Shown here piece after piece: positions 6,117 through 9,922 of a DNA stretch of 64,000 bases; within the stretch, counting starts at the first letter, position 1, and each line of letters opens with the position of its first letter. The stretch comes from a virus (lineage: Duplodnaviria; Heunggongvirae; Uroviricota; Caudoviricetes): positions 85,621 through 149,620 of the IMG/VR virus record IMGVR_UViG_3300046692_000144. One strand, written 5' to 3'. The notes beneath the pieces are model-generated. The model was not told where the DNA came from, did not search any database, and saw nothing but the letters and a program-made list of their open reading frames with translations. Both the position numbers and the translations under genes were made by a program.

Positions 6117-6314
6117 ATGGCTATCACTTCGACCAAGATCGTTATCAGCACCACTGGCCAGACCTTCATCGTTCCTGGCGCCAGCACTGCTGAACAGGTC
6201 AAAAACCTGTACGGTTCTTCGGTTCCTGCCATCAACTCGATGGACGCCGACGTAAGCGATGACGGCGAAGTCCGTACCATCACCTTCCGTGCTCGTACCG
6301 GCACCAAAGGCTAA
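6117..6314 (+). CDS. Prokaryotic ubiquitin-like protein (PRTRC protein C-like)
   Basis: 65 aa, ends RARTGTKG, AGGAG SD, first gene of an E2/JAB/E1 operon. Confidence 0.8.
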   Translation: MAITSTKIVISTTGQTFIVPGASTAEQVKNLYGSSVPAINSMDADVSDDGEVRTITFRARTGTKG

Positions 6315-6344
6315 TTCCGAACCCTCGGTCTTAGCTTGATTGAG

Positions 6345-6376
6345 AAAGCCTCCCTAGTGGAGGCTTTTTCTTTTAG
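6345..6376 (+). terminator. Intrinsic terminator after the Ubl gene
   Basis: AAAGCCTCC-CTAGT-GGAGGCTTT plus T-tract. Confidence 0.8.
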
Positions 6377-7858: not shown

Positions 7859-8545
7859 ATGTCTAATCAACTTTTGGATATCAAACTTTTTGATACCCAT
7901 GCTTTGATCACTCGACCCGGATCGAAGCTTGCAAAACCAGTTGGGGTTAAGGATCTGGTGAGTGTTCTGAGTGAGTCTGCTCAGAACGTTCTCAACTACT
8001 CCCGATCAGAAACTCTGCGTCTGCCGAGCAATGTCTACATGACGAGCTACGCAGGCAACATGCTGAACCTCTGCATGTATTTCGAACAACGTCCGCTCAA
8101 GGTTCGTCACATCGACGATAGCAAGGGCAAGGACTACGAGATCATGATGCCTAACGTGGTTATCCACTTGGCGCTCAAGGTCAGCAACAACGGCGGCAAA
8201 CACGAAGTAACCGGTGCATGGTACTACTGCACTCCGGAGACTCGTGACAACCTGCCGACAGTAATCCCGGGGAAACTGAAGGGCATCTTCGGCTGGTTGC
8301 CTTTCCCGAACTGCTACGAGAACTTCACTCTCTGCTATGGCCGAAACAGTGTGTTCCACGCAGTAGAAGGCGGTGACCTTCGTATCTTCAACGTCTACTA
8401 CGACGTGCTCGTCAACAGTGCGTTTAACAACGACCTGCGTCTGATGGGTGTGAACTTCGATGGTCGTAACCGTGACTGGTTCGCCAAGATGGCTGAGGTT
8501 TACAAAACCGAACAACGTTTCCCCTACGAACTGATTAAATTCTAA
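7859..8545 (+). CDS. Prokaryotic E2-like conjugating enzyme (PRTRC protein B / Prok-E2 family D-like)
   Basis: LPFPNCYENFTLCYG matches the PF.N....G.iC.G active-site region; MPNVV strand; operon context. Confidence 0.75.
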   Translation: MSNQLLDIKLFDTHALITRPGSKLAKPVGVKDLVSVLSESAQNVLNYSRSETLRLPSNVYMTSYAGNMLNLCMYFEQRPLKVRHIDDSKGKDYEIMMPNVVIHLALKVSNNGGKHEVTGAWYYCTPETRDNLPTVIPGKLKGIFGWLPFPNCYENFTLCYGRNSVFHAVEGGDLRIFNVYYDVLVNSAFNNDLRLMGVNFDGRNRDWFAKMAEVYKTEQRFPYELIKF

Positions 8546-8558
8546 GAGGTCCTGAACA

Positions 8559-9581
8559 ATGACTCTACAAGTAGTATTGCCGCATTTCTCGTGCATCGTC
8601 TCCAGCGACGAGGCTCTCAAGCAAGCTGAAGAAGAAGGCTACTGCGAGATCTTCATCATCTCCCAGACTGGTCTGTTCAAACGTACTGGCTTGACCCACG
8701 GTCGTAGCGTTACTGTTCCTTGTGCAGCGCTTCCAGGTAACGTTTCCCTGCCGAAAAGCGGTCAAGACGTTTCCAAGTTTTTCCCTGCTGGCAAGATCCC
8801 TAAGCACTTCCTGGCAAAGATCATCAGCTTCTTCAAAGCAGTAATGGTCGAAAACAAAGGCACCAACCTGGAAGCACAAGCGTTCGTAATCTGGAACCCG
8901 GAACTGGGCTACCACATTCGAATCCCTGAGCAGACTGTTGCCGGTGCTTCGGTAAGCTACTCCTGGGAAAACTTCCTGGGTCCAAACGATGTGGTTGTTC
9001 TGGACATGCACTCCCACAACAACATGAACGCGTTCTTCAGCGGCACCGACGACCGCGACGACAATGGCAACTGCACCATCTCAGGTGTAGTAGGCAAGCT
9101 GAGCACCACCTGTGAATTGGTGTTCCGCTTCAACCTGCCTGGCAACCTGAAGATCAACCCTCTGGGCATGGACTTCATCTTCGCAGAAGAGGAGGACAAC
9201 TTCGAAGTCCCAAAGGACTGGCTGAACAACGTTAAGCGTCAGGTGTACGTTCCGCCTGTTGTTCCGGTTGGTGGCTACAACTACGGCGGCAACGGCTACA
9301 ACAAACGTAACTACGGCAAGAACGCGACCGCTGGGGGTGTCGTCCACAACGAAAGCTTTCGCGGACAGAATGGCCAAATGGCCATGGATGATGCTGGACT
9401 AAGCCAGGACGACGCGGAGGTGCTGGCCAGTTTCGGTCACCCTTTTCCGTTTAGCGGTGAAGGAGGTAACCAACCCCCTTTCACCGAGCGCCCGCTGACA
9501 AAGGGGCGCAAAACTCAGAAGCAAGCGAGCAAGGTAACTCGGCTGAAAACGAAGGCTCGCAGCCCCCGGATTATTATCTGA
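8559..9581 (+). CDS. JAB/MPN metallopeptidase (PRTRC protein A-like), unshifted isoform
   Basis: Upstream Glu (EAQA) and DMHSHNNMNAFFSGTDDRDD zinc motif. Confidence 0.85.
   Translation: MTLQVVLPHFSCIVSSDEALKQAEEEGYCEIFIISQTGLFKRTGLTHGRSVTVPCAALPGNVSLPKSGQDVSKFFPAGKIPKHFLAKIISFFKAVMVENKGTNLEAQAFVIWNPELGYHIRIPEQTVAGASVSYSWENFLGPNDVVVLDMHSHNNMNAFFSGTDDRDDNGNCTISGVVGKLSTTCELVFRFNLPGNLKINPLGMDFIFAEEEDNFEVPKDWLNNVKRQVYVPPVVPVGGYNYGGNGYNKRNYGKNATAGGVVHNESFRGQNGQMAMDDAGLSQDDAEVLASFGHPFPFSGEGGNQPPFTERPLTKGRKTQKQASKVTRLKTKARSPRIII
9460..9509 (+). other. Putative -1 programmed frameshift signal (SD, C CCT TTC, hairpin)
   Basis: GGAGG 9462-9466, heptamer 9476-9482, GCGCCC/GGGCGC stem 9488-9509. Confidence 0.7.
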
Positions 9582-9856
9582 CGGGCGAAGATGGCTTTGC
9601 GAAGCTTGACTGGAAAAACCCAGCCGTAGCAGACGCAGCGCTGCCTCTGTTGGACGTGGACGAGGATGATGACTTCTGGGTTCTCCAGGAGACAGAAGGC
9701 CTGAACACGGCGATGGCGTACACCGTGGGTAAAAACTGTATCGACGCGATGCTTGCAGAAGGTCAGCTTGATTGGCTTTCCGAGCTTCTAGACTACGCAG
9801 AAGATACTCTCGGCTTGGACGCTCTCGCAGCAGAAGCGGGTGCCGAAAAGAGTTAA
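9479..9856 (+). CDS. Acidic C-terminal extension of JAB in the -1 frame (the track's 9650..9856 ORF is its tail)
   Basis: Frame open from 9470 to TAA 9856, with no start codon at SD distance from the GGAGG. Confidence 0.6.
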   Translation, partial: FHRAPADKGAQNSEASEQGNSAENEGSQPPDYYLTGEDGFAKLDWKNPAVADAALPLLDVDEDDDFWVLQETEGLNTAMAYTVGKNCIDAMLAEGQLDWLSELLDYAEDTLGLDALAAEAGAEKS

Positions 9857-9861
9857 AGCTT

Positions 9862-9868
9862 GGTATAA
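9862..9868 (+). promoter_or_regulatory. Early-type promoter motif GGTATAA
   Basis: Upstream of the E1 gene. Confidence 0.7.
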
Positions 9869-9922
9869 CTAAGGTAGTGGAGGATACCCTCCCTACCTTT
9901 TGTCTTTTGGAGAGGCTCAGTA

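Follow-up and report, generated by a model that had tools for sequence, protein, structure and literature searches.

A programmed -1 ribosomal frameshift most probably operates in the JAB peptidase gene of a phage ubiquitin-like conjugation cassette. From comparative sequence evidence we put the probability of this reading at about 0.85. One gene would then yield predicted products of 340 and 432 aa that have residues 1-308 in common and end in tails of opposite net charge, +10 and -22. The gene lies in what we call the window, the whole 64,000 nt stretch analysed, which is part of a 165,460 bp IMG/VR virus record with direct terminal repeats. Several rhizosphere metagenomes contain near-identical DNA, and none of the sequencing runs listed as holding the stretch is an RNA run. 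A preliminary description of this DNA had proposed that a Shine-Dalgarno (SD) sequence, a slippery heptamer and a hairpin together give the peptidase either a Lys/Arg-rich tail (340 aa) or an acidic one (432 aa). On recheck its coordinates for all three elements were correct to the base, and the computed tail charges agree with the two products it described. The features of the JAB gene and its -1 frame are as follows.

8559-9581, + strand: JAB/JAMM peptidase gene, zero frame, encoding the 340 aa short isoform (from the list of open reading frames)
9462-9466, + strand: SD-like GGAGG, candidate upstream stimulator, 10 nt before the P-site codon
9476-9482, + strand: slippery heptamer C_CCT_TTC, of the form X_XXY_YYZ in the zero frame (from the codons CCC CCT TTC and from conservation)
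9482-9856, + strand: -1 frame after the shift, 124 aa, net charge -22, stop codon TAA at 9854-9856 (from the open frame and substitution phase)
9483-9578, + strand: zero-frame basic tail, 32 aa, net charge +10, predicted to be disordered (from motif, charge and pLDDT)
9488-9509, + strand: GC-rich stem-loop, candidate downstream stimulator (predicted fold; GCGCCC at 9488-9493, GGGCGC at 9504-9509)
9620-9847, + strand: five-helix C-terminal domain of the long isoform (from an AF2 model and hhalign homology)

Conservation of the frame arrangement

The site was compared between the window and 11 relatives with DNA (L005-L015), to which collection scans added L018, L042 and L043. These 14 loci come from separate assemblies and amount to about 12 distinct relatives, with JAB proteins 43-79% identical; L018 and L042 are near-duplicates resembling L015, and L043 is one resembling L014. 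The closest relative known from protein, P0002, is 85% identical. At every locus (the 12 with DNA as well as L018, L042 and L043) an open reading frame lies downstream in the -1 frame of JAB and shares 79-139 nt with the 3' end of the gene. The last upstream stop in the -1 frame comes 0-8 codons ahead of a conserved Pro-Phe, past which 111-140 codons are open. In the window the closing stop is the TAA at 9467-9469, after which the frame runs open from 9470 to 9856, the endpoint given in the preliminary description. Because the overlap is poor in T, base composition accounts for part of this openness; taken per genome, a run this long would be open by chance with a probability of just 6e-4 to 4e-2.

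In a tree of the JAB core, the split (frameshift) type occupies one side of a branch with support 100/99, and under midpoint rooting it nests among unsplit forms. Unsplit long JABs do exist, as relatives of 417-465 aa, as IMG/VR relatives of 426 aa, and in a cultured relative, Salmonella phage Arash, whose gp247c (412 aa) is a continuous JAB ORF.

Such unsplit relatives, and a C5 homopolymer exactly at the frame change, would fit a split that arose through an indel introduced into the C5 run by sequencing or assembly, as the preliminary description itself considered, or through a recent inactivating frameshift that left a pseudogene or truncated gene. The error version of this explanation is refuted by contigs from other samples (word depth 506 and 88), which span 9300-9900 with three substitutions and no indel, so the arrangement is not an assembly error. 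Two of those substitutions fall in the downstream ORF (9790 and 9796), both at -1-frame third positions. One further sequencing run, X5, has coverage limited to 9300-9422. Separately assembled relatives, down to 43% identity, have the same frame arrangement. As for decay, no stops or indels were seen accumulating in the -1 ORF of the relatives; that ORF evolves under purifying selection, and the zero-frame tail has been kept as protein sequence (see below). We consider an indel or a decayed gene exceedingly improbable.

The slippery heptamer

The P-site codon of the heptamer is CCT (9477-9479), and all 11 close relatives carry NNC_CCT_TTY at this site, synonymous positions included. The residue preceding the heptamer Pro varies (P, R, L, A, H or G) and its codon always ends in C; the Pro itself is encoded by CCT throughout, including L007 and L010, in which just 4-6% of Pro codons are CCT. 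Naive codon-frequency products come to 1.7e-7 for the CCT and 3.4e-5 for the NNC. In the most distant subclade (L014, L043) the CCT-type heptamer is replaced by G_GGT_TTT, which retains the slippery pattern. Codon pairs that fit the pattern occur about once in 256, so a heptamer in a single sequence could be chance, and it is the conservation across relatives that goes far beyond chance. Both versions belong to classes measured in E. coli: H_HH.U_UU.Y heptamers are among the most efficient there, C_CC.U_UU.C being high-level, and R_RR.U_UU.Y heptamers are shift-prone (Sharma et al. 2014, PMC4066793).

A second in-phase heptamer, A_AAG_GGG, occurs at 9500-9506 within the 3' arm of the hairpin, and falls in a high-efficiency class for E. 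coli (PMC4066793). It is absent from the relatives and was rejected as a conserved shift site; some shifting at this heptamer could nevertheless produce a second, minor junction in the window phage.

Candidate stimulatory elements on either side

The hairpin is predicted to fold at -14.7 kcal/mol and is separated from the heptamer by a 5 nt spacer. A GC stem-loop stands 5-6 nt 3' of the heptamer in 12 of 12 loci, a spacing inside the 5-9 nt range that defines -1 sites of the bacterial and phage type. When the stems are aligned, 83% of cells are paired, compared with 37-55% when the partners are slid out of register, and three of the eight stem pairs are altered on both sides (GC/CG, CG/UA, UA/AU). 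This support for the stem must be counted as only moderate, since the region is dual-coding and its nucleotide conservation could partly reflect protein constraint.

Pairing of GGAGG with the anti-SD gives a duplex of -13.1 kcal/mol, within the top 0.8% of windows of the gene, a value to be read with the caution that the host's anti-SD may differ. An SD-like stretch is present 4-18 nt upstream in 12 of 12 loci; ranked by its duplex energy with the anti-SD, it comes in the top 0-10% for its gene, and at the top 4% or better in eight of the 12. The stretch also encodes a conserved Gly/Glu patch, and for this reason we count it as consistent with a stimulatory role rather than as proof of one. 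The three-part signal read from one sequence in the preliminary description, with the SD-like stretch as a candidate element, is present in every clade relative with DNA; the conservation in homologs that the description named as a check extends to heptamer, hairpin and frame arrangement alike.

The same two proteins would also result from RNA polymerase slippage on the C5/T3 run, in which mRNAs lacking one base would encode the long form, and slippage of this kind serves some dnaX and IS genes (PMC5009743). Known cases of productive slippage need A or T runs some 9 nt long (PMC5009743), whereas the runs at this site are just C5 and T3-T4, and in L014 and L043 the site is G3T4 rather than C5. 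Slippage by the polymerase would moreover leave both the hairpin at 5-6 nt and the SD-like element unexplained, and we judge it highly unlikely.

The zero frame and the short isoform

The zero-frame product matches Prok-JAB (PF14464) with 28.6 bits against a gathering cutoff of 25. It contains the JAMM motif E...HxH-x7-S-xx-D, whose residues E105, H151, H153, S161 and D164 are invariant in the alignment of relatives. A PDB sequence search with the JAB profile gave no match. The AF2 model of the short isoform is folded over residues 1-226, and Foldseek matches for this model are almost exclusively MPN/JAB chains, with weak E-values. Beyond the core, the model has a disordered linker rich in Gly and Asn, then a short helix at residues 283-290 that is conserved, and lastly the disordered basic tail, with pLDDT below 50 for residues 292-340. 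The shift site thus falls within a region modelled as disordered, where a change of frame would be structurally harmless.

Protein searches recovered 18 relatives (JAB 43-85% identical, 336-365 aa) with the same kind of basic tail, in which the motif PFxxRPxxxGRK...RLxxKxR is kept. In 12 of 12 loci the zero-frame tail carries a net charge of +8 to +12, over a length of 21-38 aa. This conservation as protein indicates that the short form is real and not the product of an error.

About ten further relatives are only 189-211 aa long (P0020-P0025, P0035, P0037, P0046 and P0047). Of these, P0025 aligns with residues 158-338 of the window JAB, starting exactly at AFFSGTD, from which it follows that the split in the JAB gene there falls within the JAMM motif and separates HSH from S..D. 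That genome retains the basic tail and the Pro-Phe site, and the split may be due to an intron, to the insertion of an element or to a further case of recoding.

The -1 frame and the predicted long isoform

The net charge of the -1 product is -14 to -24 in 12 of 12 loci, so that the opposition of charges described from the single sequence is conserved, and the -1 tail is conserved in sequence as well. One part of that description has to be tempered: within the overlap, some of the opposition is forced by the genetic code, because GAN read one base later gives AAN/AGN. The acidic character extends well past the overlap, and the basic tail has its own conserved motif.

In the AF2 model of the -1 product, residues 1-33 are disordered, with pLDDT below 50. 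A helical domain follows, with pLDDT of 83-93 over residues 41-110, falling to 71 and then 59 in the final two blocks of ten residues; its five predicted helices span residues 48-123. The -1 products of the relatives align well. The five-helix domain is homologous to the C-terminus of the unsplit 417-465 aa relatives (hhalign probability 95.5%, E 1.6e-8), where it is encoded in frame 0. A fold search with the domain against PDB and the ESM Atlas gave no meaningful match, nor did the -1 product match anything in PHROGs, Pfam or NCBIfam. A DNA search of GenBank phages and a tblastn search with the -1 product were likewise without match, and a first scan of viral contigs with that product found no relative.

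Between relatives, substitutions fall at zero-frame third positions upstream of the site and at -1-frame third positions downstream of the JAB stop; within the overlap the two patterns mix, the zero-frame one slightly prevailing. In the pairs among L008, L012 and L015, 17 startless codons separate the JAB stop from the first ATG, and most of the changes in them are at third positions of the -1 frame (10/17, versus 3/16 and 1/17 at the others). The phases of these codons were read from these pairs, the alignment of the window with L005 being too gappy to read. Judged by these substitutions, both frames are shown to be under purifying selection.

The only serious rival to a frameshift is independent translation. 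On this explanation JAB ends at 9581 and the acidic helical protein has a gene of its own, translated through internal initiation or through reinitiation after termination at the JAB stop; heptamer and hairpin would then be incidental. Gene callers do predict a separate gene of 47-100 aa in every relative, and some loci offer a plausible start: in L007 and L010 an ATG that shares one base with the JAB stop, ATGA in L013, a start codon at or overlapping the JAB stop also in the P0002 contig, and AGGAG followed 6 nt later by ATG in L008, L012 and L015. Separate genes would not account for the window and L005. In the window the stop overlap reads ACG, and ATG, GTG and TTG are all absent from the -1 frame across 57 codons after the heptamer, the first candidate being a TTG at 9650 without an SD. 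In L005 there is no start codon for 76 codons after the heptamer. In both, the first possible -1-frame start falls within the conserved domain. The startless codons described above evolve as -1-frame coding sequence, and the unsplit relatives show the helical domain to belong on the JAB polypeptide. Separate genes would also leave unexplained both the fixed synonymous sites of the heptamer and its replacement by another slippery heptamer in L014 and L043. We regard two separate genes as unlikely, though a free C-terminal domain may be made alongside the fusion in some relatives.

The ubiquitin-like cassette

The shift site sits within a co-oriented cassette that encodes a ubiquitin-like protein (Ubl), two unknown proteins, an E2-like protein, JAB and ThiF/E1. 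Its other identified genes are as follows.

6117-6314, + strand: ubiquitin-like protein, 65 aa, ending in GTKG (weak match to TIGR03738, PRTRC_C)
7859-8545, co-oriented with the cassette: E2-like protein, 228 aa
9923-11188, + strand: ThiF/E1-like adenylyltransferase, directly downstream (PF00899, E 3.6e-17; TIGR03736 under its cutoff)

A Pfam scan of the cassette matched Prok-JAB and ThiF. The best NCBIfam matches are the PRTRC models for protein A, ThiF and protein C, each under its curated cutoff: TIGR03735 (protein A, the JAB) scores 72.8 against 101.8, TIGR03736 (ThiF) 77.7 against 144.75, and TIGR03738 (protein C, the Ubl) 18.8 against 45.95. No ParB-like domain was found by Pfam or NCBIfam among the six operon proteins scanned. 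By the curated equivalog cutoffs, the cassette is a PRTRC relative and not a member.

The 65 aa Ubl is identical in the window and L005, whereas the JAB proteins of the two are 79% identical. Its C-terminus is GTKG in the window, L005, L009 and L010, and GTKGC in L008, L012 and L015; the one-residue extension would need trimming before adenylation, presumably by the JAB peptidase. Directly 3' of the Ubl gene is a terminator-like hairpin with a 12 bp stem and a T run (window positions 6342-6370), and another terminator-like hairpin with a T run lies between the -1 ORF stop and the E1 gene (9873-9905). The latter comes directly after the stop, which supports the view that a coding unit really ends at 9856, and the two hairpins may tune the stoichiometry of the cassette.

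In Salmonella phage Arash (L016, OQ632216.1 176281-179301), the genes flanking the unsplit JAB are annotated as structural proteins, and they hold the positions of the window's E2-like gene (before JAB) and E1 gene (after JAB). This annotation suggests that parts of the Ubl cassette are carried in the virion. In the frameshift clade (window and L005-L015) E1 has an acidic C-terminus, its last 40 residues having a net charge of -5 to -13. These acidic tails could pair by charge with the basic tail of JAB, an idea founded purely on correlation.

Proposed mechanism and origin

In the mechanism we favour, a programmed -1 frameshift, the GC hairpin 5 nt downstream would slow ribosomes that have CCU in the P site and UUC in the A site (9477-9482). 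The slowing would probably be reinforced by base pairing between the 16S rRNA tail and GGAGG, which lies 10 nt upstream. Some ribosomes would then slip back by one base, their tRNA-Pro and tRNA-Phe moving from CCU-UUC onto CCC-UUU. Ribosomes that do not slip would add the 32 aa disordered basic tail and stop at 9581, giving the 340 aa product. Those that slip would add an acidic linker of about 45 aa and the five-helix domain and stop at 9856, giving the 432 aa product with the predicted junction ...NQPPF|HRAPADK. The JAMM catalytic domain would be common to both. The long form would restore the architecture of the unsplit relatives, and the short form would be specific to the frameshift clade. 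That slipping takes place, and that it sets the ratio of the isoforms, we infer from these sequence features.

What the two tails do can only be guessed at. The helical domain might be a tethered docking module inherited from an unsplit ancestor, and the basic tail a newer, overprinted peptide that binds nucleic acid or an acidic partner. Joining these elements, we tentatively sketch a history that we consider less likely than not. An ancestral one-frame JAB (core, linker and helical domain) would have suffered a one-base indel in its disordered linker, the full-length protein being rescued by slippage at a nearby heptamer; the basic tail, overprinted on the acidic linker, would then have gained a function, and the phage would have come to depend on a fixed ratio of isoforms in a Ubl system that is perhaps virion-associated. 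If this history were true, a functional peptide would have been born by overprinting and locked in by recoding, and recoding would for the first time be known from a ubiquitin-like pathway of a prokaryote or virus.

Significance

The conserved frameshifts known in phages lie for the most part in genes for tail chaperones and in mobile elements. A conserved shift in a deconjugating peptidase would indicate that the phage needs two versions of the enzyme in fixed proportion, and two tails on one catalytic core would offer a handle on the targets and role of the cassette. Our literature search on recoding in JAB, PRTRC, Bil, Bub, CBASS or Ubl genes found none reported, in line with the preliminary description, whose author knew of no such event in a Ubl system; a search on phage Arash returned nothing relevant. 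There is also a consequence for annotation, as gene callers give a 340 aa JAB and a truncated orphan of 47-100 aa in every member of the clade, and the orphan should be joined to the JAB as the product of the frameshift. The clade further provides a natural series for the study of C_CCU_UUY sites, with at least 12 diverged sites, of which one has another heptamer and several differ in loop or stem.

Comparison with known systems

The signal most resembles that of E. coli dnaX (tau/gamma), in which an X_XXY_YYZ heptamer is preceded at about 10 nt by an internal SD-like element and followed at 5-6 nt by a simple stem-loop (PMC5009743). The same three parts are found here, the SD-like stretch as a candidate stimulator, and in both cases one gene would give two products with a common N-terminus. 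The heptamers differ (A_AAA_AAG in dnaX, C_CCU_UUC in JAB), as do the proteins, a clamp-loader subunit in the one case and a phage JAB peptidase in the other. More importantly, the dnaX shift truncates, gamma ending one codon past the site, whereas the JAB shift would add 124 aa. The label "dnaX-style" given in the preliminary description accordingly fits the stimulators but not the outcome, since the addition of a domain is what is seen in lambda gpG/gpGT and in IS3/IS911 OrfA/OrfAB, where the shift likewise appends a domain. The arrangement of the lambda gpG/gpGT type is conserved across divergent phages, fixing the ratio of its products (PMC5009743, PMC4066793). The lambda and IS3 proteins are unrelated to JAB, and a further difference is that the non-shifted JAB product gains its own conserved tail of 21-38 aa, making the two C-termini alternatives rather than one a subset of the other.

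Among gene systems, the cassette shares its set of Ubl, E2-like, JAB and E1 genes with PRTRC and with the Ubl-E2-JAB-E1 operons described by Iyer, Burroughs and Aravind in 2006 (PMC1779556). It departs from PRTRC in its scores, which are under the cutoffs, in having no ParB-related gene seen in the operon, and in its setting, a 165 kb phage in which it sits beside terminase and structural genes. Closest to the JAB itself are the unsplit phage JABs (for example Arash gp247c and the 426 aa IMG/VR relatives), which share the JAB core at 34-44% identity and a long disordered linker. The C-terminal helical domain, compared in the 417-465 aa unsplit relatives, is present there as well. Unlike the frameshift clade, they are encoded in one continuous frame, without the heptamer split or a basic alternative tail. 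What we propose for the JAB gene is a known mechanism in a new gene class.
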